Shown here piece by piece: positions 39,384 through 56,854 of a DNA stretch of 64,000 nt. Location: contig JAHFFE010000002.1 of assembly GCA_023248155.1 (NCBI GenBank), positions 256,864-320,863 on the forward strand, read 5' to 3'. The notes under the pieces were generated by a model, which saw nothing but the letters and a program-made list of their open reading frames with translations, was not told where the DNA came from and made no database searches. The stretch comes from Candidatus Omnitrophota bacterium. Its GTDB lineage: Bacteria; Omnitrophota; Gorgyraeia; 1-14-0-20-64-10. Position 1 is the first letter of the stretch; each line of letters begins with the position of its first letter. The translations under genes were made by a program, and so were the position numbers.

Positions 39384-40315
39384 AAGCAAAACCCGGTGAA
39401 TTTGTATCGGGCGAAGAACTCAGCCGTCTTTCCGGCGTTTCGCGCACGGCTATCTGGAAAGAGATTGAGAAGCTGCGCGCCGAGGGCTATAAAATTTCCG
39501 CGCGGCCGCGCCAGGGTTATAAACTGACGGCGGTTCCCGACCGGCTTACCGCGCAGGAACTTCGCTGGAATTTAAAAACCCGCGTCGTCGGCTGCCGGGT
39601 TCACGCCTATGAATCAACCGATTCCACGATGGATTTATCGCATCGGTTGGCCGCCTCCGGCGAACCGGAAGGTTCCGTTGTGATTACCGAATCGCAAAAC
39701 AAAGGCCGCGGCCGGATGGGCAGGGTATGGGCTTCTCCCCGCGGTACCGGCCTTTATTTTTCTGTTTTATTCCGCCCCGCGCTGCCGGTTTCGCGCGTTC
39801 CTCATCTGACGTTGGTCGCCGCGGTGGCTGTCGCCGAAGCGGTTGCCGATTCGACCGGCCTGCGCCCCGATTTGAAATGGCCTAACGATCTGCTCATCGA
39901 CGGTAAAAAAATCTGCGGCATCCTCACCGAACTCAATGCCGAGGTTAACCGCGTCAATTATGTGGTGGTCGGCGTCGGCATGAACGTTAACACGGCCAAG
40001 TCCGATCTTCCGGCGCATGCTACTTCGCTGAAAGCGCAGGCCGGAGAAAAAATAGACCGCATTGCTCTGGCGAGAGCTCTCTTTCAACGCATTGACGCGC
40101 GGTACCACCAATTCCTGGGCGGCGGATGGGAACCGATCCTCGAGGCGTGGCGCTCGCACGCGCGGTTTTTGGGAAGCCGCGTGCGCGTAGCGCTGGAAGG
40201 GCGCGTGATCGACGGGCATGCGCTTGACATCGATTCCGACGGGGCGCTGCTGGTGCGCGCCGATACTGGCATCGTTGAATCGGTCTCAGCCGGCGAGGTT
40301 TTGCTGGTAAGATGA
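39347..40315 (+). CDS. birA: Bifunctional biotin--[acetyl-CoA-carboxylase] ligase / biotin operon repressor
   Basis: N-terminal HTH (…LSRLSGVSRTAIWKEIEKLRAEGY…), BPL catalytic motif …GRGRMGRVW…, and a C-terminal SH3-like domain. Confidence 0.85.
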   Translation: MAALEEAVLYALKAKPGEFVSGEELSRLSGVSRTAIWKEIEKLRAEGYKISARPRQGYKLTAVPDRLTAQELRWNLKTRVVGCRVHAYESTDSTMDLSHRLAASGEPEGSVVITESQNKGRGRMGRVWASPRGTGLYFSVLFRPALPVSRVPHLTLVAAVAVAEAVADSTGLRPDLKWPNDLLIDGKKICGILTELNAEVNRVNYVVVGVGMNVNTAKSDLPAHATSLKAQAGEKIDRIALARALFQRIDARYHQFLGGGWEPILEAWRSHARFLGSRVRVALEGRVIDGHALDIDSDGALLVRADTGIVESVSAGEVLLVR

Positions 40316-41634
40316 AAAAAATAACAGCGGCATTTATTTGTTTTTTTGCGGGAGCGGCTTTTTTTCTATGTGCTCCAGGCTCTGCGATTTATGCCAGACA
40401 AGAACAGCACCCGGTCGTGGTGCTTCGCGCCGAAGGGACGATTGATCCGGCGCTGGCCCGTTATCTGGCGCGCGGCCTGGATGAAGCCCGTCAGCGGCAG
40501 GCTTCAGTTGTTATTCTGCGGATCAATACCGAAGGCGGGTTGGATCGTTCCATCCGCCGCATGATTCAAACCATTCTTGATTCTCCGGTTCCGGTAGTGG
40601 TCTATGTTTCGCCGGAAGGCGCCCGGGCCGCTTCCACCGGCGCTTTTATCGCGGCGGCCGCGCATGGTTCGGCCATGGCCCCCGGCACCATGATTGGCGC
40701 CGCGTGCGCGGCCGACCCCGCCGATGAATCCGACGACAAATTATCAATGGCCCGCCTGAAGCTGACCAATGATGCAGCGGCTTATCTGCGGTCGGTCGCC
40801 CAGGATCATGGGCGTAATATTGAATGGGTTGAAACGGCGGTTCGCCAGGGCCGCGTTATTACCGCGCAAGAAGCGTTTAAACAAAATGCCGTCGATTATC
40901 TGGCTCCCGACCTTGAAGATCTTTTGGGCCAGATCAACGGCCGCGAAGTAAAAACTGTTTTTGGGGCCGTGACCATCGACACCGAAGATCAACCCCGCCT
41001 TTTCTTGGGTATTTCGCATGTCGAGAATTTTCTGCACCGGATCATGCGGCCCAACCTGGCTTACGCGCTGCTGTTGTTCGGCATTTATGCCATCGTTTTC
41101 GAGCTGTCCACCGCGGGCTTCGGCTTACCGGGCGTTGCCGGGGCCGTCGCGCTGGTGCTGTCGCTGGTGATGCTTGAAACGCTGGCGGTCTATTGGCTCG
41201 GCCTGGGATTGATCGCGTTTTCCATGGCGCTTTTTATCACCGATATCAAATTGGCGGGGCGCGGTGTTTTCTCATTGGCCGGCCTGATTCTGTTTGTGAT
41301 CGGCTCACTCTTTCTTTTTCCGGGCGCCGATGTGACCGGCGTCTATCTTTCGCCGCCGCTGGTCATTGGGGCCTCAGCGTTTACCGCTTTGTTTTTTCTG
41401 TTCGTGGTCGGCGCGGGTATTCGTTCGCTTAAAAACCGCGCCATTGCCGGACTCATGGCGCTGGTCGGGCAGGAAGGCAGCGTCGAAACCGACTTAAACC
41501 CGCAGGGGATTGTGCGCGTGCATGGCGAGCAGTGGCAGGCCCGCTCCACGCAGCCGCTCTGGAAAGGCTCGCGTGTGAAAATCATCCGCGCTGATGGACT
41601 GGTACTCTGGGTTGAGCCGATTCTGGACAAATGA
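40312..41634 (+). CDS. NfeD-like membrane-bound ClpP-class serine protease
   Basis: Signal sequence, ClpP/crotonase-like domain (…VVILRINTEGGLDRSIRRM…), a 4-5 TM block, and a C-terminal OB-fold segment. Confidence 0.7.
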   Translation: MKKITAAFICFFAGAAFFLCAPGSAIYARQEQHPVVVLRAEGTIDPALARYLARGLDEARQRQASVVILRINTEGGLDRSIRRMIQTILDSPVPVVVYVSPEGARAASTGAFIAAAAHGSAMAPGTMIGAACAADPADESDDKLSMARLKLTNDAAAYLRSVAQDHGRNIEWVETAVRQGRVITAQEAFKQNAVDYLAPDLEDLLGQINGREVKTVFGAVTIDTEDQPRLFLGISHVENFLHRIMRPNLAYALLLFGIYAIVFELSTAGFGLPGVAGAVALVLSLVMLETLAVYWLGLGLIAFSMALFITDIKLAGRGVFSLAGLILFVIGSLFLFPGADVTGVYLSPPLVIGASAFTALFFLFVVGAGIRSLKNRAIAGLMALVGQEGSVETDLNPQGIVRVHGEQWQARSTQPLWKGSRVKIIRADGLVLWVEPILDK

Positions 41635-41638
41635 TCCC

Positions 41639-42061
41639 ATGATAAAAACTAAAATCAAACGGATATTGATGATGAAAGAGGATCCGCATTTTTTGGCGCT
41701 CTCGCTGGGTGTTGGCATCGCGCTGGGCATCCTGCCGGGCATCGGCGCGATTGTCGCCGGGATACTGGCTCCGTTTCTCGGCTTGAATCTTCCGCTGATG
41801 GTTGCCGGCGCGTTACTGAGCAATCCGATTACCAGTCCTCTGGTCTATGGCGCCAGTTACTGGATCGGCTGCCGTCTCTGTCAGATCACTTTTCTTGAAC
41901 AGTTCAAACTGGCGCAGATTTTGTTGAAAACGCTGGCAGGTAATGTAGTTCTTGCGTTGGCGATGGGCCTGGCCGGTTATTTGTTTTTATTTCTGTTCTT
42001 GCTTTCCATGCGCTCGTTAATCCGCCATCGTCCTCGCCCCGATAGAAAGAAACCACTATGA
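41639..42061 (+). CDS. Hypothetical membrane protein, DUF2062-like
   Basis: The ATG at 41639 gives MIKTKIKRILMMKEDPHFLALSLGVGIALGILPGIGAIVAG…. The track ORF starts at 41594, inside nfeD. Confidence 0.5.
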   Translation: MIKTKIKRILMMKEDPHFLALSLGVGIALGILPGIGAIVAGILAPFLGLNLPLMVAGALLSNPITSPLVYGASYWIGCRLCQITFLEQFKLAQILLKTLAGNVVLALAMGLAGYLFLFLFLLSMRSLIRHRPRPDRKKPL

Positions 42062-42798: not shown

Positions 42799-42857
42799 CT
42801 TGATATTTCACTAACCACCAGCCATACTTCCTATATAAGCCGTATTTTTCAACCTGG

Positions 42858-42884
42858 CCGGAACTGTTTTTCCGGTTTTGTTTT
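42858..42884 (+). terminator. Intrinsic terminator after coaX
   Basis: Hairpin ccggaa-ctgttt-ttccgg followed by ttttgtttt. Confidence 0.6.
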
Positions 42885-42921: not shown

Positions 42922-45900
42922 ATGCTTGAACGCAAAAAATTAAGACACCTTAAAACAATCCTTTGCCTGACGCTGGCCATCGTTATGGCGTTGCCGCCGC
43001 CCTTTCTTTTTGCAGCTTCTTCCAATACAAATCATCTTCGTATGGCCCAGATTCAAGATAGTCGTTCCAACCCCATTCGTACCGGTCTGGAAGAATCTCT
43101 GCGCGGCGCGCTGGAGGAAAATACAGGCGAAAATAGAGCCGAACATCCGGACGTTTCCCTCAACCCGGTTTCTTTCTACATTGAAGCTTTCGGAGAAAGC
43201 ATTAGTGCTGCGAAGAGTTCTCTGGGCGCTCCTACGTCTGTTAGCTGGGCTGGCTTTTTGAGGAATGAACTGCCCTCTGTTGAATGGCAATTTGAACATC
43301 TAATAAGACCTATCCAAAATAACCTCCCCGCTTTTCTGCGTTTTTTGAAATCAAGCGATGCCGTCACTTCTGATTTGTTGGCGGAAGCTCGTTCGGAGAT
43401 CGCGAAGGAAGTGGGGCTGCCTTCCGATCAGATTTTCTTTATCCGGCCAAATGACTATTTGGTGTGGGGTTTGTTTTACGGCCTGAATGATTTCGAAGGA
43501 CCGTCCGGAGAACTGCGGCCCCATTTGGGTACTCGGGGCTTTCATGTGGCTGTTCCCGATGCGTCAGGGCAGCCAGTCAGGCTATTGTTTATTCGAAATG
43601 ATCTGAATGATTTCAATGGATTAGCAACGCTTGCTCACGAAGTGGCGCACTCTCGGCAGGATGTTAACGCTTTGGACTTGTATCATCGGAATGAGTTGGG
43701 GCGCAGTATCATCGAAGGCCTTCAGCAAGATCAGGAATATCAGATTTTATTATCTTTAGCTCAGAGGGAAACCGCTTTTGGACAGAGAGTTGCCCAAGTC
43801 ATTCAGGATGAATTTCGGGAAACCGCCTCTACTAGCGAACAGCGGATTCCCAAGGACCTTTCAATGCAATTGGGATCATTATTGTGGGACATTGATTATC
43901 AACAGGAGCACCTGTTTGTTAGAAGTCTGAGGGACCGGATGGTGGAAGCGGCGGGAGAAGCAGCGGCAGAAGCAGCGCTTCAAGAAGTTTACCAGAGAGG
44001 TAACTTGACCGCGGTTAGCTCAGCGCTTGTTGGATCTTCGCGCTACGAGCTGACGTCGTCTATTCTCGATCAGTTTCGGCAACTGCAGGCGCGTAATGAG
44101 CGGTTCTATCAACATGTTGGATTAAGCCTGGCCTCCCACTTTGGACTTGGTTCCAGGGAATACACGCCGCGTGAAACAGAATTGCTTCTGGAATTTTTTG
44201 AAACATTGGTTGATCTACTGTCGAAGAATATAGCTTTCCAAAAGGAAGAAAACGACCCCTTTTCGCTTTCAGAAGATGTTATTGATCTGGCAGAAGCGTA
44301 TCTGCAAGGGGGAATTTCCAGAGAAGAAGCTCCAGGGAACATCGCTAATCTTTTCGACAACTTTGAACCCGATACCTCTGAATCCGGTTTGGAAGAAGCA
44401 GAGGCGCGGGTTCAGAAGATTCTGCAGATTCTTCGGGAAGGGAATGCAAAAGAAGAGGGAGGGGTTCTGCTTAATCTCGACAGACTTCTTACGCCCGAGC
44501 CCCATCCGGCGTTGGTTCAGCAGGCAAAACTTGTAGTGACAGAGTTCGTCCAAAACTTATCCACAACCGACTTGGATATGAGGCGAGTTTCAGTAAGAGG
44601 GTTACAGCGTCTCATGCCACACGCTGCTTTTCGAGATGCGATGGTTGGAACCGGTCTGGTCCAAGCTGCGATAGAGCATCCGTCCTATCATCTGATGGGC
44701 TATCCTAGCTCAGATTTGACAGGAACCTTGTCTCCGTTAATTCCGGATGAGCGTTTTAGAAATGAGTTCTCTGAGGGAGTTCTTCGATTGCTTCTGCTGA
44801 TGGCCTCTTCCGAAAAATCATTGCTTCGTGATGATGCGAAAAAGCTTCTGTCCGCCATCAGTGCCGACCCAGGGTTTTACCCTGTTTTGGTTGTTCAGAT
44901 TCCAACATTAGTTGACTGGACCATTTACGGTGATCAAAACAACATCTTCTTGCGTAGCGACAGTTATGAGCTCCTTGAGGCCATGGCCAAAGCCGACCAT
45001 CGCCTTTACTGGCCCGAGCTTTTAGCTCAAGTGCCGTATATTCTTGCGGCTCTGCCTCGGAGTCCTGTCTATGCAAGCGATTTGCTTAGAGACATTCTTA
45101 AGCAAATGGATTTAGCTCAAAATCCGGATCTCCAAAATGTATTAATTCGGGGAACCCCCTTACTCATAAAGCTTGCCTACGGTTTTGCCCAATCATCAGT
45201 TGTAAGAGATATTCTTCTCGATTTATCCAGGGCGGATAATCCTTTGTTCGATACGGCTCTTGCTTTGGAAGTGACAGGGCGGTTGTCTAAACTGGGGGAT
45301 TCAAATTTGGAAATTCGGTCTGAAGCCAGCTTTAGTCTGAATCGGATGGTGGGAAAAGGAGATTTTTCTCCGGTGCTGGCGGCTCATATCCCGGAGCTTG
45401 TTTCTCAGCTTAGTTCCCCAGAATGGGATGCCCGTTATCATGCAGGCAAAATTCTCTCTGAAATGGCTCTTAATCCGGCAAGAGTCTTTCATTCAGCATT
45501 GGCGCTGCAGATTCCGAATTTGTTTGAGCCCCTGGGTCATCAAAGCGACGTAGTCGCCGCGGCGACAAACAGCGTAGTCGCCGCTTTTCTGCAGGGCGGG
45601 GTCGCTCCGGGTGTTCTGGCGCTGCATTATTTAGTTCATTTCCCGCAATTGGCGGAACGCGGCGAAGCGCTGCTGCGCGCCCTATATCTCAAGGGGTTTT
45701 ATGCGGCACCGGTCTATGAACAAGCTGCTCGTTCAGTGCTTCAAAGCAATGGTTCAAGCCGTTGGCATGTGGAAAGTAATCAAGGAGGTCTTGTGTTGGT
45801 AGAAAGTTATGGCCGGCCGTTGGACATTCCGGCGGACGAGCGTGTTCCCCTCACTGATCCCGATGGAGATTCTATCGCGGACGCGAAACTGGAAATAGCT

Positions 45901-47436
45901 GAGGAAAATGATGAGTCATCCTACGGCGGCATAGCCGACCAGTTTTACCGAGTGGCGACATTAACTCGCGATGGAGAGAGACAAGGGCTTCTGCTTTATC
46001 AACCGGCACTGACAGCGTGGGAGAGTGCCACTACTCAGCAGAGGCAGCAGAAAGGCGCTGTTTTTGTGGGTATGTCACCGTACGCAGGGCAGGTCTTCTT
46101 CCTGATGCCGTGGGGAGAACTGCTGCAAATATGGGTGAACACCCAGGAGCTTCTGAATGATCAAGACCGCCGCGTTCGAGAAGCGCAAGCTTATTTTAAA
46201 GAACATCAGGATCTTTCGAGGTTAATGACGAATCTGACTGGCAATGACGATGATAAATACTTTATCTTTCAAAGTCTGATCGTAGAAATGCCGTTGGAAG
46301 GGGCATTTCTGGATGAAGAAAGCGGTCTTCCCATGAGTGTGGTAGCGGAGTTGACGTCCAAGGGCGTTGACAGAGAAGAGATAAGGCCCTTTGTGAATCA
46401 TGCCTTGGCGATATGGCTGGAGGAAGTCCAACAGGAAGGCGACCTCCGGTCGCTCTATGAGATGCTCTTTCATCTGATTTACTTCAAGATTTTGCCCGGT
46501 GAAATATCCGGATATCGCGATGTGATTCAGGTTCGACAGGGAGAGTTCAATGGCATGCAGGCAGAACAGATGTTAAACGAAGCCATTGCGCCCGATCTTC
46601 CTCCGGCCATTAGTGCGGGGATCACGAAAGAGGTTGCAGAAGGTGGCAGCGTTGGGCTTCGGCGTGGGGGTGTCTTCGATGTCCACGCCAAAACCACCTG
46701 GCAACTTTTGGCTGATTTAGAGACACGCGGCCGTGTCCAGACTCCGACAGCGCCCTCCCTCTCGTTGGGAGAAGAAGGGTGGACTCTTAAACTGCTGGGA
46801 GAACTTCAAAAAGGAACAATAGGTATTTATCTCAACAGCGATGCCCAGCCCTTGTCGCCAGATCGGTTTGGCGATGAATTTCCGGATGGAATCAGCCATC
46901 TTGTGATTAAGCCTGTGCCTTCTTCCGGCATGGAGGAAGAAACTGTTACCGTTACGCAAAATGGGCCGGTCATTACCACCACGGCCACGGCGCTGCGCAT
47001 CGAATGGAACAATTTCCCCAGGGTCACTATTTCTTCGACGATAACCGAGCCTAAGCGCGTATTGATTGTAACGCCGGATGGTTTAACCAAACTTTCGTTG
47101 GCGGCGGTCTTTGCCGGCCCCGACGGGAAGAGCCCGTTGATCATCGAAGCGCTGGCAGTCGATGATGCGCAGAAAGGTCGCGTCGAATCGGCTTTGCGCG
47201 AATTGGGTTTGACCAATATCCGCGTCCATAGCGTTAAATCAGAGTTTGGCGGGAATACCGGCGAGGGGATCGCTACTCTTGAGATGTTGCACTGGCAGCA
47301 GAACCAGCAAACTCTTGTAGTCACCGCTCTCACCGAGCTGGCAGATATTGCGCAGTTCCTGGGTGTTCCCGGCGCGGAATTGGAACTCTTTGGTGTTGAA
47401 GCGGCTGCCCAGAATAGCCAGTCGGTTTGGTCGTAA
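42922..47436 (+). CDS. Giant (1504 aa) secreted hypothetical protein with HEXXH motif and HEAT-like repeats
   Basis: N-terminal signal peptide MLERKKLRHLKTILCLTLAIVMALPPPFLFAASS. LATLAHEVAHSRQD motif near residue 240. Repeated helical HEAT/PBS-lyase-like units (…SPEWDARYHAGKILSEMA…). RBS aagga upstream. GC is clearly below that of neighbouring genes. Confidence 0.7.
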   Translation: MLERKKLRHLKTILCLTLAIVMALPPPFLFAASSNTNHLRMAQIQDSRSNPIRTGLEESLRGALEENTGENRAEHPDVSLNPVSFYIEAFGESISAAKSSLGAPTSVSWAGFLRNELPSVEWQFEHLIRPIQNNLPAFLRFLKSSDAVTSDLLAEARSEIAKEVGLPSDQIFFIRPNDYLVWGLFYGLNDFEGPSGELRPHLGTRGFHVAVPDASGQPVRLLFIRNDLNDFNGLATLAHEVAHSRQDVNALDLYHRNELGRSIIEGLQQDQEYQILLSLAQRETAFGQRVAQVIQDEFRETASTSEQRIPKDLSMQLGSLLWDIDYQQEHLFVRSLRDRMVEAAGEAAAEAALQEVYQRGNLTAVSSALVGSSRYELTSSILDQFRQLQARNERFYQHVGLSLASHFGLGSREYTPRETELLLEFFETLVDLLSKNIAFQKEENDPFSLSEDVIDLAEAYLQGGISREEAPGNIANLFDNFEPDTSESGLEEAEARVQKILQILREGNAKEEGGVLLNLDRLLTPEPHPALVQQAKLVVTEFVQNLSTTDLDMRRVSVRGLQRLMPHAAFRDAMVGTGLVQAAIEHPSYHLMGYPSSDLTGTLSPLIPDERFRNEFSEGVLRLLLLMASSEKSLLRDDAKKLLSAISADPGFYPVLVVQIPTLVDWTIYGDQNNIFLRSDSYELLEAMAKADHRLYWPELLAQVPYILAALPRSPVYASDLLRDILKQMDLAQNPDLQNVLIRGTPLLIKLAYGFAQSSVVRDILLDLSRADNPLFDTALALEVTGRLSKLGDSNLEIRSEASFSLNRMVGKGDFSPVLAAHIPELVSQLSSPEWDARYHAGKILSEMALNPARVFHSALALQIPNLFEPLGHQSDVVAAATNSVVAAFLQGGVAPGVLALHYLVHFPQLAERGEALLRALYLKGFYAAPVYEQAARSVLQSNGSSRWHVESNQGGLVLVESYGRPLDIPADERVPLTDPDGDSIADAKLEIAEENDESSYGGIADQFYRVATLTRDGERQGLLLYQPALTAWESATTQQRQQKGAVFVGMSPYAGQVFFLMPWGELLQIWVNTQELLNDQDRRVREAQAYFKEHQDLSRLMTNLTGNDDDKYFIFQSLIVEMPLEGAFLDEESGLPMSVVAELTSKGVDREEIRPFVNHALAIWLEEVQQEGDLRSLYEMLFHLIYFKILPGEISGYRDVIQVRQGEFNGMQAEQMLNEAIAPDLPPAISAGITKEVAEGGSVGLRRGGVFDVHAKTTWQLLADLETRGRVQTPTAPSLSLGEEGWTLKLLGELQKGTIGIYLNSDAQPLSPDRFGDEFPDGISHLVIKPVPSSGMEEETVTVTQNGPVITTTATALRIEWNNFPRVTISSTITEPKRVLIVTPDGLTKLSLAAVFAGPDGKSPLIIEALAVDDAQKGRVESALRELGLTNIRVHSVKSEFGGNTGEGIATLEMLHWQQNQQTLVVTALTELADIAQFLGVPGAELELFGVEAAAQNSQSVWS

Positions 47437-47468: not shown

Positions 47469-49643
47469 ATGCGTTGTTTTAAGAAATTCTCTCCGCTGTT
47501 ACTAACATTCCTTATCGTAACTTCCGGTTGTTCTAAGCCGAAGGAACCCCCGCAGTCATTTTTCTCCGAAATGGATCATCTGTCTGAAACGGGCAATTAC
47601 ACCCAGCTGGTCAAAGCGGCGCAGACGATGGCAAAAAAACATCCCGATTCCGGCCGTCTGCAGCGCATTATAGGAAACGCCGAATTCTCCCAAACTCATT
47701 TTTCCGAAGCGGCCGATGCGTTGCAATCGGCGGTTGATCGCGGGTATGGCGGCGCTGAAACGCGCCGGATGCTGGGTCTCTCTTATTTTTATACCGGCGA
47801 TTTCGACGAAGCGGCCGCGCAATTAGAAGCGGTCTTGCGTCAGCAATCGCTGGACACCGAGGCGATGCGGCATCTGGGCTATCTCTATTATTACCTTGGC
47901 CAGGGCGCGAAAGCGGTGGCGGTGTTCGAAAAGCTCCGAGATGAAAACCCGCAAGACCTCGAATCGCTGATCGCGCTTGATGGATTATTGGCGCTCACTA
48001 AAAAATGGCAGGCCGCGCAAATGATCTGGTATTCCGAGCCGTCGTCAGGCTTGCAATTTTGTTATCCGGGCGGCTGGCTGCGCGAAGACAAAGAAAAATT
48101 AATTTCATCGGGCAAAACAATTTCCCGCTTGTTTTACCAGCCGCTGGTTTCTTCGGGCGGCCGCTTTTCAGGCATCTCGATGATGCTGGTCTCGGTCGAT
48201 AATGCCCGCCATGTTCCCTCTGAAAATCTTTTGAAAGGCCCCTGGCGGATGAGTGGCCAAACAGCCGAAGGTGAAAATATTTACTCCAATCTCTCGGGCA
48301 ACGCGGATTCTCCAAAGACTCAGGCGGTTTCGCGCGAGCCGGAAGAAATCACCCGCTGGCTCAGCCGGCAGGGGACCCGCATGATATCCAGCAGTTATAA
48401 TCTGGCATTCAAAGAGAGAAAAATTTCTTCGTGGGTCGGCGTGCGCGGCCAGGCCCGATATTGTCTTGGAGAAGAATTGGGTGAAGACGAGTCCGGCCGC
48501 CTGATTTACGGAAACAGCGCCGGCATTTACGATCCCGGCGCCGATCACTTTTTTCTGCTGATGGTGTATGGGCCGTCCGACAGAAAAGAAGACACGGCCG
48601 CTCTGTTTCGCGCGGTTTTTCAGACGGCGTTGTTTGGCGGGGTGGCCGGCATTCCGCCGGCGCCGGGTGAATGGCTGCCTGAAAAAGAGTATATCGCCCG
48701 CACCCAGGGTTTCCTGCAGAACGACGCTTCCGCCCGCGCGCTCACCGAGGCCAAAGAGGGAATAAAAGCCTATCCCAATTCCGGCGAAATGTTTTTCTGG
48801 GCCGGCAAATCGCACGCCGCTCTCTGGGATATGGAAGAAGCCGCCAAGGCCTACGAGCAGGCGAAAGAAAAAGGGTTTTCTTCCGCCGAATTGGAATTCG
48901 CGCTGGGCCAGTCGCGGTTGATGCTGGGCCAGTATGCCGAAGCCGAGAAAGCGTTTCTTCGCGGGTTGCAAATCGATTCGGCCAATGTTGAGGTGTTGAT
49001 GGGGCTTGCCAAAACCAGCTTCTGGCAAAACCAGATGGACCGGTCGATTGAACTATTTGAAAAAATCCCGAAAGATTCCGCCCGATTTGAAGAAGCCGCT
49101 TATTATGCCGGCGCGGTTCGCGCGCTGCAGGGGATCCCGGGCCCGGTGCAGTGGTACTCGTCTCAAAACGGAAGTTCTTTTTGTTATCCCGCCAACTGGG
49201 AGGCGCATGAATCAACCGAGCCGGACGGAAAGAATCAAATCATTTTTTACGACCGTTCCTGGTACCAGGCAGGCAGTCTTCCGGAAAGTATCCTTTTATA
49301 CGAGTGGCAGGACAGCGCTTCTCATCGCACCCAGAAAATCCGCGTAAAATCTCCGCCCGAGCAGATCCTCAACGAATTTTTCACCGACTATTGGGAAAAA
49401 CTGCCCGATCCGCTCAAAACCATTAAGTCGGTCAGCCCCATATTAAGGAAGGGCAGCGACCGTTTCTTGTGGGCCGAAGGTTCCTATACCGAAAACTCAA
49501 TCCGTAAAACCGTCCGCTGGCTGGCCTGCTACAATCCCGAAAAAGACCGCCTCCATCTGCTTGAATTTCATTCCGCCGGAACTTCTCTCGGCAAATGGTC
49601 GCTTTTTGCCGATGTCTGCCTGAATACCGCCCATTTCGAATAA
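47469..49643 (+). CDS. TPR-repeat lipoprotein with internal two-module duplication
   Basis: The ATG at 47469 gives MRCFKKFSPLLLTFLIVTSGCSKP, a lipobox. Two TPR blocks are each followed by a similar W-Y-S-x6-F-C-Y-P-x2-W module. Confidence 0.7.
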   Translation: MRCFKKFSPLLLTFLIVTSGCSKPKEPPQSFFSEMDHLSETGNYTQLVKAAQTMAKKHPDSGRLQRIIGNAEFSQTHFSEAADALQSAVDRGYGGAETRRMLGLSYFYTGDFDEAAAQLEAVLRQQSLDTEAMRHLGYLYYYLGQGAKAVAVFEKLRDENPQDLESLIALDGLLALTKKWQAAQMIWYSEPSSGLQFCYPGGWLREDKEKLISSGKTISRLFYQPLVSSGGRFSGISMMLVSVDNARHVPSENLLKGPWRMSGQTAEGENIYSNLSGNADSPKTQAVSREPEEITRWLSRQGTRMISSSYNLAFKERKISSWVGVRGQARYCLGEELGEDESGRLIYGNSAGIYDPGADHFFLLMVYGPSDRKEDTAALFRAVFQTALFGGVAGIPPAPGEWLPEKEYIARTQGFLQNDASARALTEAKEGIKAYPNSGEMFFWAGKSHAALWDMEEAAKAYEQAKEKGFSSAELEFALGQSRLMLGQYAEAEKAFLRGLQIDSANVEVLMGLAKTSFWQNQMDRSIELFEKIPKDSARFEEAAYYAGAVRALQGIPGPVQWYSSQNGSSFCYPANWEAHESTEPDGKNQIIFYDRSWYQAGSLPESILLYEWQDSASHRTQKIRVKSPPEQILNEFFTDYWEKLPDPLKTIKSVSPILRKGSDRFLWAEGSYTENSIRKTVRWLACYNPEKDRLHLLEFHSAGTSLGKWSLFADVCLNTAHFE

Positions 49644-49646
49644 TAG

Positions 49647-49674
49647 TTGACAACCAGTTCCCGCGTGGTACTAT
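49647..49674 (+). promoter_or_regulatory. Sigma70-type promoter of the groES-groEL-groES operon
   Basis: TTGACA (49647-49652), a 16-nt spacer, then TACTAT (49669-49674). Located ~70 nt upstream of groES and immediately before the CIRCE-like element. Confidence 0.5.
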
Positions 49675-49684
49675 ATCCCTGCGA

Positions 49685-49711
49685 TTAGCACTCTGCACCA
49701 GAGACCGCTAA
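49685..49711 (+). promoter_or_regulatory. CIRCE-like (HrcA operator) inverted repeat
   Basis: TTAGCACTC-N9-GACCGCTAA, compared with the consensus TTAGCACTC-N9-GAGTGCTAA. The left half is perfect and the right half matches 7 of 9. Confidence 0.55.
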
Positions 49712-51716: not shown

Positions 51717-52007
51717 ATGATGAATCTAAAGCCTCTCGGCGATAAAGTAATCGTGGAAGTGCTCGGCTCGGCCGAAAAGACCAAGAGCGGACTCTACCTG
51801 CCGGATACCGCGCAGGAAAAACCGCAGGAGGCCAAGGTATTAGCGGTCGGTTCAGGGCGCGTTCTGCCCAACGGCAAAGTGGTTCCGCCGGATCTCAAGG
51901 CGGGCGACATTGTTCTGTTCGGCAAGTACTCCGGCAACGAGGTCACACTCGACGGCAAGGAGTATTTGATCATCGGTCAGGACGATGTTTTGGCTGTTAT
52001 CAAGTGA
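51717..52007 (+). CDS. Second Cpn10/GroES paralog downstream of groEL
   Basis: MMNLKPLGDKVIVEVLGSAEKTKSGLYLPDTAQEKPQEAKVLAVGSGRVL… is a full-length Cpn10 fold sequence. Start is 4 nt after the groEL stop. Confidence 0.85.
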   Translation: MMNLKPLGDKVIVEVLGSAEKTKSGLYLPDTAQEKPQEAKVLAVGSGRVLPNGKVVPPDLKAGDIVLFGKYSGNEVTLDGKEYLIIGQDDVLAVIK

Positions 52008-52015
52008 AATAGATA

Positions 52016-52047
52016 GTCATCCCCGAATCGTTTTTGTCGGGGATCTA
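52016..52047 (+). repeat. Hairpin repeat R, copy 1 (gtcATCCCCGAatcgtttttgTCGGGGATct)
   Basis: An 8-bp stem ATCCCCGA/TCGGGGAT with a 10-nt loop. A near-identical copy lies at 58035-58067, matching at 29 of 32 positions. Confidence 0.7.
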
Positions 52048-52061
52048 AAATCGTAAACAGT

Positions 52062-52093
52062 CGGCCGGGGAAAACTCCCGGCCGTTTTGTTTT
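52062..52093 (+). terminator. Intrinsic terminator of the groESL operon
   Basis: Hairpin cggccggg-gaaaact-cccggccg followed by ttttgtttt. Confidence 0.75.
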
Positions 52094-52119
52094 GAGGGAG
52101 AGTTAAAACTAAAAATCTC

Positions 52120-53268
52120 ATGAGGACTGGAAGAAACGACCCGTGTCTATGTGGCAGCGGAAAAAAATACAAGAAATGTTGTCTTGAGCGAATCTCTGTG
52201 CCGACTGTTCCTATTGAGATTTTAATGGAGTTAAGGGATCGTGAGCAAAAGTTGCGAACATGGAAACAGCAATATGGAGATGTTCGCCCTCCGATAGCGT
52301 TTGATTTTAAAGGAAAAAAACTTGTTGTATCAGGCAGTCGGGTGCATTACGCAAATGTTGATCAGTGGAGATTTATACCAGATTTTTTGATGAATTATTT
52401 ACCTGTGACTCTGGGAAAAGAATGGGGAGATGCAGAATTAAAGAAACCATTCCAAGAACAGCACCCGATTGTCCAATGGCGGACCAAAACCCTGGAATAT
52501 ATGGGAAAACAAAAAAAAGAAGAAAACGGTTCTTACTCTGCTGTTGCCAGTGGATTTATGGCTGCATTCTTATCGCTCGCTTGGGATATTTATGTAGTCC
52601 AAGACAATGGTCGATTAGATAGTTCTTTATTAGAGCGATTAAAACACAAGGAGCAATTTCAAGGTGCTCGTCACGAGTTGTTTGCTGAAGCTACCTGTCT
52701 TCGTGCAGGCTATTCTATTGTTCATGAAAACGAGAAAGATGGTAGAACAAGGCACGCTGAATTCAGCGCAACACATAAAGAAACCGGTCAAAAAATCTCT
52801 GTTGAAGCAAAAAGCAGGCATCGTCCAGGAGTGCTTGGATATCCAGGTGTGCCAAAAGCGGAAGACAAAATGAGTTTAAGATTTGGTCAGCTTCTTAACG
52901 ATGCTATTAATAAACAGCCGCCTTACCCGCTCGTTGTTTTTATAGACACTAATCTTCCCGCCAGTATTGCCGACAGAGTGTATGCCCCGGCCTCCATCAA
53001 TCCGTTTAGTCCGTCACGAGTCATAAATCAATTATTAGAGCAAACAAACAAAAATCATGGGGGCACAGATCCCTGCAACCTCGTAGTATTTACAAATCAT
53101 CCGCATCATTACAGCAAGGATGAGGAGTTAGATCCGAAAAGTCACAATTTGTCGATCATGGCTCAAATTCCTCAGAAAAAACCAACACATCCGCTCAGTA
53201 TATTGAAAATTCATGAGGCCGCTTGTCTTTATGGGTGTGTTCCAAATGAATTTCCACAGATAAAATAA
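52120..53268 (+). CDS. SEC-C metal-binding-motif protein, possible PD-(D/E)xK-like core (AT-rich islet)
   Basis: N-terminus MRTGRNDPCLCGSGKKYKKCC is a SEC-C zinc-binding motif. The central region …HAEFSATHKETGQKISVEAKS… fits the hhE-x15-ExK pattern of restriction-endonuclease-like folds (speculative). GC is ~43%. Confidence 0.65.
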   Translation: MRTGRNDPCLCGSGKKYKKCCLERISVPTVPIEILMELRDREQKLRTWKQQYGDVRPPIAFDFKGKKLVVSGSRVHYANVDQWRFIPDFLMNYLPVTLGKEWGDAELKKPFQEQHPIVQWRTKTLEYMGKQKKEENGSYSAVASGFMAAFLSLAWDIYVVQDNGRLDSSLLERLKHKEQFQGARHELFAEATCLRAGYSIVHENEKDGRTRHAEFSATHKETGQKISVEAKSRHRPGVLGYPGVPKAEDKMSLRFGQLLNDAINKQPPYPLVVFIDTNLPASIADRVYAPASINPFSPSRVINQLLEQTNKNHGGTDPCNLVVFTNHPHHYSKDEELDPKSHNLSIMAQIPQKKPTHPLSILKIHEAACLYGCVPNEFPQIK

Positions 53269-53285
53269 CGCAAAAAGTTTGGCGA

Positions 53286-53348
53286 ATAGCGGTACCGGGT
53301 ACCGCGGGGACAGGTTAAAATAGATCCGGCACTTTTGGAAACGGTACC
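53286..53348. repeat. Intergenic repeat pair: Y-type repeat (ATAgCGGTACCGGGTACCGCGGGGACA) plus inverted X-type repeat
   Basis: 53286-53312 matches the Y repeats at 54121-54147 and 54156-54182. The reverse complement of 53326-53348 is GGTACCgTTTCCAAAAGTGCCGG, which matches the X repeats. Confidence 0.7.
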
Positions 53349-53395
53349 TAACAGTAACTAGGTGACGTGGGAATCAAACTATTGAGAGGGTTAAG

Positions 53396-54073
53396 GTGAA
53401 GTTTTTGAGAGGTTTCTTGTTAATAGTCCTTCTAGTGGCTTCGCAGGGGTGTGCTTTGGGAGTACTGGCTAATGGGCCAAAGGGTTTGAACGCGATCAAG
53501 CATATGACGGAGATAGTCTCTGACCCTCCAGGAGCTCGAATTGAGATTAATAATCGATATATTGGCAATACGCCACTTACAGTAGAAATTCCTCGCGGAT
53601 ACACTTGGATGAAAGATGATTATTTCAGTCCAAAGCGCATAACAGGTTTCGAAGCAGTGAAGATCACGGCTTATCCGGAGCCTCCGACGGAAGGAGTTTA
53701 CTATGTTCAAACAAAGATTCTCGATTCAAATGAACCGACTCCTTACAATCTCTCCTTTACCATGTGGCTAGAACCTGCTTTTGTTCGTCAAGAAAGAGAG
53801 CATAGAGTACAAGAGGAAGATCGTCAGAGAAAAACCTATGAGGCTTTAAATAGCTGGATAGGCCACACAAAGACAGAACTTCTAGAGCAATGGGGTCCTC
53901 CTACCCAAGTTATTACGAACAAGGAGCAAGATGTCCTTGCATATGATAATTCGGTTCAAATGACTGTGCCTGTGGGATCGGCTGGCCAGCGGTTAATTGT
54001 GAAATCAGGGAAGTATGTAATGTTTTGGATAGATGCCAAGGAAAAAATTTATAAAGTCACATGGAAGGATTAA
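53396..54073 (+). CDS. PEGA-domain lipoprotein
   Basis: GTG start with RBS aagg. Lipobox LLVASQGC. …SDPPGARIEINNRYIGNTPLTVEIPRG… matches the PEGA domain pattern. AT-rich. Confidence 0.65.
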   Translation: MKFLRGFLLIVLLVASQGCALGVLANGPKGLNAIKHMTEIVSDPPGARIEINNRYIGNTPLTVEIPRGYTWMKDDYFSPKRITGFEAVKITAYPEPPTEGVYYVQTKILDSNEPTPYNLSFTMWLEPAFVRQEREHRVQEEDRQRKTYEALNSWIGHTKTELLEQWGPPTQVITNKEQDVLAYDNSVQMTVPVGSAGQRLIVKSGKYVMFWIDAKEKIYKVTWKD

Positions 54074-54081
54074 TCATGAAG

Positions 54082-54218
54082 AGTACCATTTCCAAAAGTG
54101 CCGGGTCTGAGCTTGTGTGGATAACGGTACCGGATACCGTGGGGACAGCGTGAGCATAACGGTACCGGGTACCGCGGGGACACCCGTAGGGTACCATTTC
54201 CAAAAGTGCCGGGTCTGA
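54082..54218 (+). repeat. Nested direct-repeat block X-Y-Y-X filling the intergenic region
   Basis: X1 spans 54082-54110 and X2 spans 54190-54218 (aGTACCATTTCCAAAAGTGCCGGGTCTGA, 28 of 29 identical). Y2 spans 54121-54147 and Y3 spans 54156-54182 (ATAACGGTACCGGrTACCGyGGGGACA). Spacers are 7-10 nt. Confidence 0.8.
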
Positions 54219-54239
54219 TTGATTAGCAGGGGTGGTGTT

Positions 54240-54566
54240 ATGATGCTTAAGACCAAAATTTTTAGCGCGGGTTTTTTGGGCGGGTTAATTCTGGCCCTTT
54301 TTCTGAATCTTCTGCCTTATTGGAAAACAAAAGGGGCTTTGGCGTGGGATGGTGCTGAGTATGCCGGATTTCCATTCCATTTCTATGAGCGATGGGCAGG
54401 TGAGATGCTGCCAGGGGCAACGACCAATTTAACAGCCCATTTTCTTATGGTGAATTTATTGGGTGACATAGGTGTTGGAGTCGCATTCGCGATAATTTTA
54501 GGTGTTTTGTGTGTCATGGCGCGTAATCGTGCCGGGTTCAATAAAGCATTGGGCGGGGACAGGTAG
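54240..54566 (+). CDS. Hypothetical small membrane protein (3 TM)
   Basis: The ATG at 54240 gives MMLKTKIFSAGFLGGLILALFLNLL…. The track ORF starts at TTG 54219, inside repeat X2. Confidence 0.5.
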   Translation: MMLKTKIFSAGFLGGLILALFLNLLPYWKTKGALAWDGAEYAGFPFHFYERWAGEMLPGATTNLTAHFLMVNLLGDIGVGVAFAIILGVLCVMARNRAGFNKALGGDR

Positions 54567-54584
54567 TAAAGTCCCCGTTTTTTT
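54554..54584 (+). terminator. Intrinsic terminator
   Basis: cggggac-aggtagtaaa-gtccccg followed by ttttttt. The stop codon lies in the loop. Confidence 0.75.
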
Positions 54585-54625
54585 CTGGCCACGATATTGC
54601 TGAATCAGCATAAATATTATTTGGG

Positions 54626-55075
54626 GTGATGCTCGACTCCGATCTGGCAGAGTTGTATGGTGTTCCCACGAAAGTTCTAAACCAAGCGGTAAAGAGAAAC
54701 GAGGAGCGATTTCCCGAAGGTTTTATGTTCCAATTGAATCAAGCAGAGTATAAATCTCTAAGGTCACAATTTGTGACCTTAGAGAAAGGGCGTGGAAAAT
54801 ATCCAAAATACCTCCCCCTGGTATTTACCGAACAGGGAGTCGCGATGCTCTCCAGTGTATTGCGCAGCAAGCGAGCAATTCAGGTGAACATTGCCATCAT
54901 GAAAACCTTCGTGAAGCTCCGGGAATTGTTATCAACCCACAGGGATCTTGCTGAAAAGCTGGCCACGCTGGAAAGCAAGTACGACTCGCAATTTAAGGTG
55001 GTTTTTGAAGCAATCCGCCAGTTAATGCTTCCTCCCGAAACGCCCCGCCGCAAAATAGGATTCCATTCGGATTAA
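54626..55075 (+). CDS. ORF6N/KilA-N-type DNA-binding domain protein (phage antirepressor-like)
   Basis: [37 protein letters not shown]…[31 protein letters not shown]… matches the ORF6N domain consensus. Shorter than typical at the N-terminus; a stop lies 15 nt upstream in frame. Confidence 0.8.
54756..54784 (+). other. 29-bp perfect palindrome inside the ORF6N coding sequence (ctctaaGGTCACAAtTTGTGACCttagag)
   Basis: 14-bp perfectly complementary arms around a single central T. The 17-bp core GGTCACAATTTGTGACC is identical to the terminator hairpin at 55080-55112. Encodes [10 protein letters not shown]. Confidence 0.8.
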
Positions 55076-55079
55076 ATTG

Positions 55080-55114
55080 AAACTTGAGGTCACAATTTGT
55101 GACCTCAAGTTTTT
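55080..55114 (+). terminator. Intrinsic terminator of the ORF6N gene (second copy of the GGTCACAATTTGTGACC palindrome)
   Basis: gaaacttgaGGTCACAAtTTGTGACCtcaagttt, a 14-16-bp stem followed by ttttt, 5 nt after the stop codon. Confidence 0.75.
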
Positions 55115-55119
55115 AGCAA

Positions 55120-55162
55120 GGTACCATTTGCGGTGATGCCGGGTTAAAATAAACCCAATCAG
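55120..55162 (+). repeat. Upstream motif C (GGTACCATTTgCGGtGaTGCCGGGTTAaAATAaaCCCAatCAg) abutting the next start codon
   Basis: Shares GGTACCATTTcC…GTGCCGGGT with the X repeats and shares …TGCCGGGTTA-AATA--CCCA-CA with motif D at 55986-56029. Ends 1 nt before the ATG at 55163. Confidence 0.7.
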
Positions 55163-55978
55163 ATGACCCGATTCGTTCACCGATCTCTCGCCGCTGGGCT
55201 GTTGGTGCTGAGCCTTTTCACGGGTTCGGCAAGCGCGCGAGATTTTCTGTTTACAGAAGCAGAATCGGATTGCTTTGCCCAGATGATTTTCATGAATGAA
55301 TGTTCGGGCAGAGAAGAAAAGTTGCTTTACTGGTCGCCCGATGAGGCGTTTCCATCGCTTGGGATCGGGCATTTTATCTGGTACCCCGAAAATGCCTCGG
55401 GCTCTTACCTGGAAACATTCCCGGCATTTCTTGGTTTTGCTAAAGAGATCCATCTGATGATCCCGCCCTGGATTGTCGCACTGCCAAACAAACACTGCCC
55501 CTGGCAGTCGCGCGAGGAGTTTCTGCGAGATCTTCCCAGCGACCGCGTACGCGAGTTGCGGGCTTTCCTGAGCAACACGAAAAGCGAGCAGGCGCAGTTT
55601 ATCGGCCGCCGTTTTATGCGGGTTTTTCCTCGGATTCTTGACGATCTCAACGAGTCGGATCGTGAAGCTACTCAACAGAAATACGATCTTTTGATGCGGC
55701 GTCGCGAGGCGACTTTTGCCATGATCGACTATGTCAATTTTAAAGGGGAAGGACTGCGCGCGGATGCCCGTTATGACGGGATGGGGTGGGGTCTTGCCCA
55801 TGTTCTTATTGAGATGAATATTCCGGACGATCCCGAGAAAGCCCTCGATGAATTTATCCTGGCGGCGGAACGGGTGCTTGAAAGGCGAGTGAGCCGCTCT
55901 CCGAGGCCGGAAATCGAAGCGAAATGGCTGCCCGGCTGGAAAAATCGCGTTAGAAGCTACTCGAGAATCAAGTGTTGA
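55163..55978 (+). CDS. Hypothetical secreted protein
   Basis: Signal peptide MTRFVHRSLAAGLLVLSLFTGSASA. No recognisable domain. High GC (~65%), unlike the preceding AT-rich genes. Confidence 0.6.
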   Translation: MTRFVHRSLAAGLLVLSLFTGSASARDFLFTEAESDCFAQMIFMNECSGREEKLLYWSPDEAFPSLGIGHFIWYPENASGSYLETFPAFLGFAKEIHLMIPPWIVALPNKHCPWQSREEFLRDLPSDRVRELRAFLSNTKSEQAQFIGRRFMRVFPRILDDLNESDREATQQKYDLLMRRREATFAMIDYVNFKGEGLRADARYDGMGWGLAHVLIEMNIPDDPEKALDEFILAAERVLERRVSRSPRPEIEAKWLPGWKNRVRSYSRIKC

Positions 55979-55985
55979 TCAGCAG

Positions 55986-56029
55986 GGTACCATTTCCGGC
56001 GGTGCCGGGTTAGAATAGGCCCAGCAAGG
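55986..56029 (+). repeat. Upstream motif D (GGTACCATTTCCGGCGGTGCCGGGTTAGAATAGGCCCAGCAAGG)
   Basis: Paralogous to motif C. Ends 3 nt before the GTG at 56033 and 12 nt before the ATG at 56042. Confidence 0.7.
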
Positions 56030-56041
56030 GGGGTGTCTTCG

Positions 56042-56410
56042 ATGCATGAAAAGAAACACCAAAAAGTAGCGCCCGTTTCAATTTTTGTAAAGAGAATGAC
56101 GATCTATGTAGGCGTCGTTCTTTCGCTGATGGTCTGCGCTTTGTTTATTGGCGTTGCCGGATACCATTGGTTGGCGGGCCTGAGCTGGGTTGATTCTCTT
56201 TTAAATGCCTCGATGATCCTGGGCGGAATGGGGCCTGTTAATGTTCTGCCTAATGCCGCTTCGAAGGTGTTCGCCTCAGCGTTCGCTCTTTTTAGCGGAA
56301 TATTTTTTATCGCGATGATGGGGATCCTTTTTGTGCCGATTATGCACCGGGTGCTTCACAAATTTCATGCCGAGGAGAAAGATTTTCAGCAAAAATCAAA
56401 AAGAGAATAA
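56042..56410 (+). CDS. Hypothetical membrane protein (3 TM)
   Basis: MHEKKHQKVAPVSIFVKRMTIYVGVVLSLMVCALFIGVAGY…. An alternative GTG start lies at 56033. Confidence 0.5.
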   Translation: MHEKKHQKVAPVSIFVKRMTIYVGVVLSLMVCALFIGVAGYHWLAGLSWVDSLLNASMILGGMGPVNVLPNAASKVFASAFALFSGIFFIAMMGILFVPIMHRVLHKFHAEEKDFQQKSKRE

Positions 56411-56420
56411 AGGAGCATTC

Positions 56421-56714: not shown

Positions 56715-56854
56715 CCGAAAAAATCGGTTTGTGGTACATTACCTTATGGCGTACTTGGTACCATCCTCAGCACTAAAAACTCTCGCAATACCGGAAAATT
56801 CCGCGCCATCTTTTTCTGTCCAACCATCTTATTATTCAAGGGAGATTCTGTCTC

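Follow-up and report, generated by a model that had tools for sequence, protein, structure and literature searches.

A modular, probably Sec-exported protein of Candidatus Omnitrophota with a predicted gluzincin-type domain and a recurrent motif at its module junctions

The gene analyzed here is located in a 64,000-nucleotide stretch of DNA from a Candidatus Omnitrophota bacterium (assembly GCA_023248155.1, contig JAHFFE010000002.1, positions 256,864 to 320,863), which is referred to as a whole as the window. It encodes a protein of 1504 amino acids, lies together with a gene for a tetratricopeptide repeat (TPR) lipoprotein between coaX and groES, and is the longest open reading frame (ORF) of the window, as the initial annotation had stated. 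With a probability of about 0.6, its product is a Sec-exported multi-module protein in which one part, module A, represents an unclassified family of gluzincin-type metallopeptidases and motif-bearing linkers join the modules, the insertion of the gene having preceded the divergence of the window from L001, a Logan contig from SRR22388058. The protein is built from a signal peptide, module A, a HEAT-like plus B2 module and module C, and the sequence [S/T/A]-G-[L/M]-E-E is present at each joint (Table 1). The known kind to which module A belongs is that of the zincins and gluzincins; what is new is the metallopeptidase-like family itself and its place in a modular exported protein whose junction motif had not been described before. 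Members of the Omnitrophota are abundant nanobacteria, most of them uncultured; they are probably predatory or host-dependent and are noted for very long secreted proteins. The GroEL encoded in the window is 73-77% identical to its best matches, mostly from metagenome-assembled genomes of Candidatus Omnitrophota, in a collection with one genome each of 185,579 species. This indicates that the window derives from a member of the Omnitrophota without a close representative in this collection.

Table 1. Position of the gene, its modules and motifs, and the adjacent elements in the window.
Feature	Position	Strand	Description
Whole ORF	42922-47436	+	ATG start, 1504 amino acids; AAGGA Shine-Dalgarno-like sequence 8 nucleotides 5' of the start
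Predicted Sec-type signal peptide or signal anchor	42922-43014	+	residues 1-31, MLERKKLRHLKTILCLTLAIVMALPPPFLFA, then ASS
Tandem junction motifs	43081-43122	+	T-G-L-E-E-S (residues 54-59) and G-A-L-E-E-N (62-67), after the signal
Module A core	43279-44391	+	residues ~120-490; gluzincin-like; H239-E240-x-x-H243, E265-G-x-Q268-x-x-x-E272
Junction motif S-G-L-E-E	44383-44397	+	residues 488-492, module A/B joint; left breakpoint of the 2.5-kb window-specific segment
Module B1	44398-45621	+	residues 493-900, helical, HEAT-like repeats clearest at ~730-900; absent from L001
Module B2	45622-46917	+	residues ~900-1332, unknown function, common to P0005 and P0027; absent from L001
Junction motif S-G-M-E-E	46924-46938	+	residues 1335-1339, module B/C joint; right breakpoint of the window-specific segment
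Module C	46939-47436	+	residues 1340-1504, unknown function; starts with a Thr/Val-rich stretch; GC content at third codon positions 0.62
Weak sigma-70-like site	42800-42828	+	consensus scan, upstream of the large gene
Putative terminator-like hairpin and T-run	42856-42877	+	3' of coaX and 5' of the large gene; consensus scan and sequence reading; would separate the large gene from the coaX transcript
TPR lipoprotein gene	47469-49643	+	724 amino acids; Pfam TPR_16 E 9e-23 and other TPR families
groES promoter-like site	49647-49674	+	strong sigma-70-like TTGACA-16-TACTAT with TG
CIRCE-like inverted repeat	49685-49711	+	TTAGCACTC-N9-GACCGCTAA, 5' of groES; right arm differs from the canonical one at two positions

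The HEXXH motif near residue 240 that the initial annotation had pointed out (H239-E-V-A-H243, inside LATLAHEVAHSRQD) proved to be the conserved core of a zincin-like domain and no chance motif. An exhaustive phmmer search with residues 40-1239 over 1.84 billion cluster representatives retrieved 28 proteins of 148-4428 amino acids, which are essentially without Pfam annotation. About 22 of them were matched via residues ~120-390 at 24-38% identity, and local iteration gave a domain extent of ~370 amino acids. In an alignment of 22 module A sequences (A2), which are 18-32% identical to the window protein, E240 is the sole fully invariant column, and at least 90% of the sequences retain H239, H243, E265, G266, Q268 and E272, resulting in the pattern HExxH-x21-EGxQxxxE. 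Based on this alignment, AlphaFold2 yielded a model of module A with a predicted local distance difference test score (pLDDT) of 86.1 and a predicted template modeling score (pTM) of 0.84, which superseded an unusable model from only two sequences (pLDDT 40.6). According to DSSP, the model, whose numbering plus 100 gives that of the full protein, contains a strand (71-74), a helix (79-88), two strands (106-112 and 118-125), the HExxH helix (130-144), a short helix and a further helix (158-180) with E165 and E172. H239-E240-V-A-H243 is thus positioned in a predicted helix at residues 230-244, where pLDDT exceeds 90, and E265 follows in model helix 158-180, 22 residues past H243, a distance within the 18-70 residues that are typical of the glutamate ligand in gluzincins. 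Gluzincins are defined by a three-stranded sheet, a backing helix, an active-site helix and a glutamate helix (PMC6414381), and the order of these elements in the model matches that core. Structure prediction, which the initial annotation had proposed as a check for a metalloprotease fold, thus gave a gluzincin-like order of elements; Foldseek found no significant match of the module A model in the PDB. By predicted fold and motif, module A is well supported in silico as a gluzincin-type domain outside any described family, and its metal site and catalysis are predicted. The zinc ligands would be H239 and H243 from the active-site helix and, as the third, E265 from the next helix (with E272 as alternative candidate), and E240 would serve as catalytic base.

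Clear homology to a well-characterized family, which the initial annotation had named as a finding that would speak against its view, was not detected: no curated peptidase family in Pfam or NCBIfam was reached above the gathering threshold by the window protein or the 22 members. The weak sequence matches all fall on the HExxH helix and comprise DUF6782 (“putative metallopeptidase”) in five of the 22 members and single matches to M1, M78, M48 and WLM. DUF6782 also gave the best peptidase-family score across the members (E 7.5e-4), which is under the curated cut-off, and a sequence-profile search of the PDB retrieved only IrrE (E 0.6). Nothing was found in the literature on DUF6782. Searches of the whole protein against Pfam, NCBIfam, PADLOC and PHROGs returned nothing save a sub-threshold HEAT match. 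In a word-indexed search of 5.8 billion proteins, the full protein matched only itself and P0002, its orthologue in L001; when the profile A2 was used in such a search (best 8000 candidates), P0021 was the sole family member among the matches listed. Relatives of module A were not found in genome contigs or metagenome contigs. The earlier statement that no homolog is recognizable thus holds for close relatives, of which P0002 is the only one in 5.8 billion proteins, but not for distant ones, which exist for two of the modules. It also left out the modular build, with its module borders, its junction motif and the wider domain family.

Module A shares with the gluzincins of MEROPS clan MA(E), e.g. 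M1 aminopeptidase N/LTA4H, M4 thermolysin, M9 collagenase, M13 neprilysin, M32, M49 DPP III and minigluzincins such as jannalysin, a HExxH helix preceded by a small beta-sheet and a backing helix, and a conserved glutamate on the next long helix. Its context hhEG(F/Y/L)Q presumably resembles the third-ligand motif NEGFA of the M1 family. In contrast to these peptidases, module A has no profile membership in a Pfam or NCBIfam peptidase family and harbors a glutamine three positions past the glutamate; its all-helical C-terminal half of ~200 amino acids has no counterpart in the matches, and the domain is embedded in multi-module secreted proteins of 400-4400 amino acids. IrrE/ImmA (M78) and DUF6782 are the best, insignificant matches, with E-values of 0.00075 to 0.6 under the curated cut-offs, and they cover only ~30 residues of the strand and the HExxH helix (“...ILIrnd....LrtLaHEiaHa” compared with “VILINSQVRPERQRFTLAHEISHAL” in IrrE). 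Members of M78 act as regulators in the cytoplasm and are fused to HTH or GAF domains, whereas the module A protein is predicted to be secreted and is modular.

The prediction of export is based on the N-terminus, in which the basic residues K5, K6, R8 and K11 precede a hydrophobic core (residues 13-31, mean Kyte-Doolittle value 2.2) that is followed by LFA/AS in a hydropathy scan. This pattern is conserved in P0002. Similar N-terminal signals are present in P0003, P0004, P0011, P0012 and P0021, and also in P0005 and P0016 once their N-termini are corrected (see below). The Sec signal predicted initially, with its basic n-region, hydrophobic core and AXA-like site, is therefore retained in the homologues.

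The modular build became apparent from the comparison of the window with L001 by BLASTP and blastn. Signal and linker (residues 1-60), module A (residues ~49-492, corresponding to 552-992 of P0002, 63% identity) and module C (residues 1333-1504, corresponding to 986-1155) are common to both proteins. A segment of 2.5 kb encoding residues 493-1332 (module B) occurs only in the window and is missing from L001, whereas L001 alone contains 1.5 kb for residues 61-551 of P0002 (module X), which are inserted exactly between the tandem N-terminal motif copies. No homology of module X to anything was found. The peptides at the breakpoints are PIRTGLEES and LRGALEEN (adjacent to each other), SESGLEEA and SSGMEEE in the window, and PIRTGLEES, PIRGGLEED and PESGLEE/TVTVTQ (at the A-to-C joint) in L001; DTSESGLEEAEAR and PVPSSGMEEETVT are examples of peptides derived from the joints. 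Every breakpoint in the window and in L001 falls on the 12-15 nucleotides that encode the motif, to within 4-7 nucleotides. Whole-module content is what has changed since the two lineages separated. The pattern [STAG]G[LMAIF]EE occurs three times in the large protein and not once in the other 17,536 amino acids encoded in the window. The copies differ synonymously (CTG, TTG, ATG and CTC; GGT, GGC and GGG), which indicates that the peptide is conserved rather than the DNA. The module A/B joint is positioned in a low-pLDDT tail of the AlphaFold2 model (residues 487-500).

Junction motifs were also analyzed across the family. The patterns were set after the sequences had been viewed and the expectation was taken from shuffles, so that small counts need to be read with care. 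For GxEE, the observed and expected numbers are 3 and 0.32 in P0001, 5 and 0.21 in P0002, 2 and 0.05 in P0003, 3 and 0.20 in P0004, 3 and 0.17 in P0011, and 9 and 0.43 in P0016. RSExR was observed 12 times in P0015 (expected 0.04), four times in P0014 (0.02) and three times in P0023 (0.02), and ARLA six times in P0006 (0.18). The corresponding values for xAMx are 3 (0.20) in P0020, 2 (0.08) in P0007 and 2 (0.14) in P0025. The enrichment in P0015 and P0016 is beyond doubt. Distant homologues thus use other, lineage-specific joint motifs, namely RSEVR, ARLA and RAM. In 10 of the 13 multi-module proteins, the motif lies at most ~30 amino acids from the C-terminal border of module A, and it is almost never found inside this domain; in P0005, which has no module A, it is located at the border of the module present there.

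The deposited starts of P0016 (L085, 6661-6900) and P0005 (L086, 7776-8030) turned out to be mis-called, as they correspond to a leucine or methionine codon inside the second GxEE copy, AG(L/M)EE. The true ORFs extend upstream to a methionine, a signal peptide (MRRTHTLPRILAAFLTLALALPAGA... in P0016 and MMNRRRSLFSRSAAMQQIAAIFLAVNLALPSQALA... in P0005) and the first GxEE copy. With these corrections, all GxEE-type members show the same order of signal peptide, tandem GxEE and modules split by GxEE. A function of the motif as internal translation start was rejected, because the ORFs continue 5' to the methionine and the signal, one copy uses CTC, copies with alanine (GCN) are common, and no properly spaced Shine-Dalgarno sequence is present at the motif. 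Double-glycine (C39) leader sites and signal-peptidase AXA sites were likewise considered as identity of the motif and rejected, since each fits some copies only.

All four motif types contain a hydrophobic residue (L, M, V, I, A or F) after a small or charged one. Thermolysin-like zincins prefer a hydrophobic residue at P1'. The motifs suit this preference, which is the reason to regard the joints as candidate processing sites. Flexible linkers with the motif small-small-G-hydrophobic-E-E would join the modules, and the precursor would be cut into its modules after export, either by module A or by a protease in trans. The motif-coding DNA would at the same time provide microhomology for in-frame module exchange. 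A similar arrangement is known from secreted polyproteins, in which a large exported precursor combines a protease with binding modules and short recurrent border sites, as does the window protein; we take the gingipain precursors RgpA, Kgp and HagA of Porphyromonas, which are processed at inter-domain sites, to be a suitable comparison. For the long proteins of Omnitrophota, embedded C39 or S8 peptidases have been suggested to carry out post-translational cleavage, at points that are unknown according to the authors (bioRxiv 10.1101/2023.11.21.568195). The window protein differs from gingipain-type and giant-protein systems in that its embedded protease would be a zincin and not a cysteine (C25/C39) or S8 peptidase, and in that its cleavage is something we infer only. 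GxEE, RSEVR, ARLA and RAM are lineage-specific, and none of them is described in the papers searched. Neither such motifs nor a metalloprotease are mentioned in the two preprints on long Omnitrophota proteins (bioRxiv 10.1101/2023.11.21.568195 and a 2026 preprint), and nothing was found in the literature on Omnitrophota polyproteins. In the most far-reaching version of this idea, Omnitrophota and related uncultured bacteria would export “beads-on-a-string” polyproteins with a lineage-specific cleavage motif (GxEE; RSEVR, ARLA or RAM), the embedded gluzincin of the new family would free the modules outside the cytoplasm by cutting the motif at its hydrophobic residue, and the same joints would allow in-frame module swaps. 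This generalization is put forward tentatively and must be considered rather doubtful. The joints may also be cleaved in trans by another protease or may stay uncut.

Several points weigh against a catalytic module A and against processing at the joints. Many gluzincins carry a small alanine, serine or glycine three positions past the glutamate ligand (PMC6414381), and module A has the near-invariant Q268 three positions past E265 and a variable residue three positions past E272. Two family members harbor degenerate motifs (HETGN in P0011 and REAVK in P0023), and thus some copies in the family are probably inactive. Neighbor-joining of the module A sequences gave a star-like, uninformative tree with which the motif type does not agree cleanly, and this weakens the idea of self-processing with co-evolving specificity. 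The joints may be cleaved, but the motifs may also be plain linkers that were kept because recombination is tolerated there. Finally, a Sec signal leads to the periplasm only and says nothing on the crossing of the outer membrane. Some of these points fit a non-catalytic zincin-like scaffold, in which module A would retain fold and metal site but bind or regulate, for example as a surface adhesin or receptor, the polypeptide would stay uncut and the GxEE sequences would be flexible linkers. The resemblance to true peptidases is modest, the ratio of nonsynonymous to synonymous substitution rates (dN/dS) of module A is raised (0.42), HExxH has been lost in P0011 and P0023, and HEAT and TPR parts are typical binding modules. 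Such a scaffold is nevertheless unlikely, since the three HExxH residues and the downstream E, G, Q and E are kept to at least 90% despite the low overall identity, as in a catalytic site, and since the catalytic glutamate of HExxH is the very column that is fully invariant.

The peptidase-like module A is followed in the window protein by modules of different kind. HEAT-like repeats are weakly indicated for residues ~560-900 only. Pfam HEAT matched residues 823-849 (E=0.0046, 17.5 bits with a cut-off of 23.5), phmmer gave matches to the HEAT arrays of P0010 (E 1.8e-9) and of P0018 (E 1.4e-6), and phmmer and jackhmmer also matched the HEAT-like part of P0005. Residues ~730-900 align to the repeated units of HEAT arrays, which belong to the HEAT/Armadillo alpha-solenoids, and only a part of the central region is repeat-like. 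Of the long central HEAT region described initially, the portion at ~560-900 is therefore weakly upheld, whereas residues 900-1332 form a separate module (B2) that is not of HEAT type. Module B2 has no Pfam match and is 28% identical to P0005 over 414 amino acids in BLASTP (E 3e-29), in agreement with jackhmmer. One assembly (GCA_016201735.1) encodes both P0005 and P0003, the latter being the closest among the distant homologues of module A. The presence of A and B on separate proteins in this assembly and their fusion in the window protein suggest that both work together. HEAT_2-like repeats also follow module A in P0014, a distant member. The HEAT-like solenoid and B2 most likely form a scaffold that binds a substrate or partner. 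Module C is 78-79% identical to its counterpart in L001. Beyond L001, no relatives of it were found by jackhmmer or phmmer, in Pfam, in the word-indexed search or in metagenome contigs, and the C-termini of the distant homologues show no homology to it. The Thr/Val-rich C-terminus noted initially is confined to the short stretch TVTVTQNGPVITTTATA at residues 1340-1357. Module C would be a lineage-specific part and a possible contact for the co-transcribed TPR lipoprotein. Module paralogues were not found in the window by tblastn with each module.

The locus was compared with those of other Omnitrophota, in which the order uvrB-(birA)-coaX-groES-groEL-IMPDH-like gene is conserved and groES directly follows coaX in L004, L005, L006, L012 and L015. 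The large gene and the TPR lipoprotein gene are present between coaX and groES only in the window and in L001, where coaX and groES are 6.8 kb apart and the flanks are 85-88% identical to those of the window. The two genes are adjacent in L001, too, and the TPR lipoproteins share 90% amino acid identity. The TPR lipoprotein gene was not found in the coaX-groES gap of the remaining Omnitrophota loci, and no relative of module A or of the large protein was detected in 80 GroEL loci. Two other Omnitrophota genomes harbor unrelated genes in this gap, which shows it to be a variable site. The gene pair is thus a lineage-specific insertion between coaX and groES with respect to other Omnitrophota. 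The stop codon of the large gene is separated by 33 nucleotides from the TPR lipoprotein gene, no terminator was found in between, and the TPR protein starting with the methionine at 47469 contains a plausible lipobox (LIVTSGC). Promoter-like site and inverted repeat (controlling inverted repeat of chaperone expression, CIRCE) behind the pair indicate that groESL possesses its own control region, which marks the downstream limit of the insertion. Together with the hairpin after coaX, this suggests that both genes form a unit of their own outside the heat-shock operon. The two-gene module upstream of groESL that had been proposed is therefore well in line with the locus, in which groES and groEL follow immediately 3'.

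The age of the insertion was estimated from the divergence between the window and L001 by Nei-Gojobori counts. Synonymous divergence (dS) is 0.47 for module A (dN/dS 0.42) and 0.71 for module C (dN/dS 0.18). The neighboring genes birA and nfeD and the TPR lipoprotein gene show dS of 0.46-0.50 with dN/dS of 0.07-0.15, and coaX shows 0.88 and 0.13. As dS of the shared modules (0.47-0.71) is like that of the neighbors (0.46-0.88), the common ancestor of the window and L001 already contained the large gene, and the two-gene insertion is older than their split. The gene evolves faster than its neighbors, yet is under purifying selection (dN/dS <1). A recent horizontal transfer, which would be one form of the acquisition suggested initially, is not supported, because dS at the same site in L001 equals that of the flanking genes. 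The data would fit an older lineage-specific acquisition or an assembly de novo out of mobile modules; mobility genes were not found in the window.

The composition of the gene deviates from that of its surroundings. Its GC content is 0.503 (0.48-0.52 in 1-kb windows, 0.41 in the lowest 200-bp window), compared with ~0.566 for the window outside the gene and 0.55-0.60 for 40 other genes individually. The deviation is clearest at third codon positions, where the GC content (GC3) is 0.495 in the large gene and 0.61-0.75 in the 40 others. With the other genes of the window as reference, its codon adaptation is 0.51, as against 0.63-0.75 for these genes. The initial annotation was thus right in assigning a lower GC content and a differing codon usage to the gene, but overestimated the size of the GC difference (38-52% versus ~60%, where computation gives 50% versus ~57%). 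Genome-typical composition, which would have spoken against its view, was not found, as GC3 and codon adaptation are both atypical.

Atypical composition and lineage-specific insertion would also suit a polymorphic effector or toxin that is directed at prey or host cells, with signal and module C as constant frame, A, B or X as payloads and the TPR lipoprotein as chaperone, immunity or docking factor. The constant ends and the variable middle between the window and L001 agree with this, as do other family members that are inserted in housekeeping operons, near a Phd/ParE pair (L085) or near primase and MerR-like genes (L086). In addition, a predatory lifestyle and protease-bearing giant proteins have been discussed for Omnitrophota (bioRxiv 10.1101/2023.11.21.568195). 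However, Pfam, NCBIfam, PADLOC and PHROGs revealed no toxin, immunity or secretion-system domain (T5SS/T6SS/T7SS/CDI), module A is common to both genomes and not variable, and the comparison comprises two genomes only. An effector function is therefore judged quite improbable as a separate explanation, and it overlaps with the metallopeptidase reading, since a secreted protease can be an effector. The surface or effector role that the initial annotation had put forward is possible. That the junction motif is instead a DNA-level recombination or insertion site of a cassette mechanism without a role in the protein is highly improbable: the breakpoints do coincide with the motif-coding nucleotides and the tandem N-terminal copies in the window resemble a scar left by precise excision or an insertion site that is empty, but the copies vary synonymously while the peptide stays, distant lineages have peptide motifs of unrelated sequence at the same structural position, and neither recombinase genes nor flanking repeats, inverted or direct, were seen in the window.

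Further observations were made on the other members of the module A family. The P0003 gene (signal, two GLEE copies and module A) ends at most ~120 nucleotides from the contig end in three independent assemblies (L082, 8001-9338; L083, 2696-4033; L084, 155-1492), which suggests that repeat or strain-variable sequence just downstream breaks the assembly. Some family members lie beside genes that resemble those of mobile elements. The P0005 gene (neighborhood L086, 2796-7456) adjoins a Toprim primase-like gene, a small MerR-like gene and unannotated ORFs, and is located near a gyrA with an intein. P0016 interrupts a row of nuo (NADH dehydrogenase) genes and is followed by a Phd/ParE toxin-antitoxin pair (L085, 12362-12909). 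Distant module A proteins have further unannotated modules in common, at the N-termini of P0006, P0014, P0015 and P0023 and at the N- and C-termini of P0007, P0020 and P0025. Among these modules are an N-terminal “...IQDAH...GGFH...” domain that, as an impression from reading only, may be TraB/GumN/TIKI-like, and a C-terminal “GGIDLTPANMNLQ...FHLDPAMLQQLQ” domain. Many proteins of the family end with -(S/R/A)AA or -SA.

The TPR lipoprotein appears to be duplicated internally, with TPR blocks at ~57-200 and ~416-560 that are each followed by an unknown domain of ~200 amino acids; these domains begin with WYSEPSSGLQFCYPGGW and WYSSQNGSSFCYPANW. A very weak PsbP-like match was also obtained (NCBIfam E 0.003). 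Downstream, a second Cpn10/GroES gene (51717-52007, 96 amino acids, Pfam E 2e-32) starts 4 nucleotides past groEL, giving the order groES-groEL-groES that also occurs in L006; L016 shows groEL-groES-groEL. Positions 51717-56850, between groEL and the IMPDH-like gene (56855-58015), form a second lineage-specific stretch of low GC content, which includes an ORF with an N-terminal SEC-C motif (52120-53268, GC 0.42, GC3 0.34) and one with a PEGA domain (53396-54073, GC 0.43). In L003-L005, L012 and L015, the IMPDH-like gene lies directly after groEL or within ~1 kb. In the genome of the window, groESL thus has insertions on either side, before groES and after groEL. Upstream, the window and L001 alone have nfeD (with three NfeD domains) and a DUF2062 gene between birA and coaX (40312-42061 in the window). 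As birA abuts coaX in L005 and L015, this pair represents a third lineage-specific insertion of the region.

Module A defines a domain family that is not covered by curated libraries and that combines a confident model with the signature of a catalytic site. The window and L001 constitute a natural “before and after” pair for the exchange of whole modules at a short linker motif. The motifs, which differ by lineage, are a testable candidate for a cleavage or junction code of modular exported Omnitrophota proteins. If the joints are plain linkers, the outcome would still be a new family of zincins and a clear case of domains shuffled in frame. If the polyprotein interpretation is true, the very long proteins of this phylum would have in these motifs their first concrete cleavage code.

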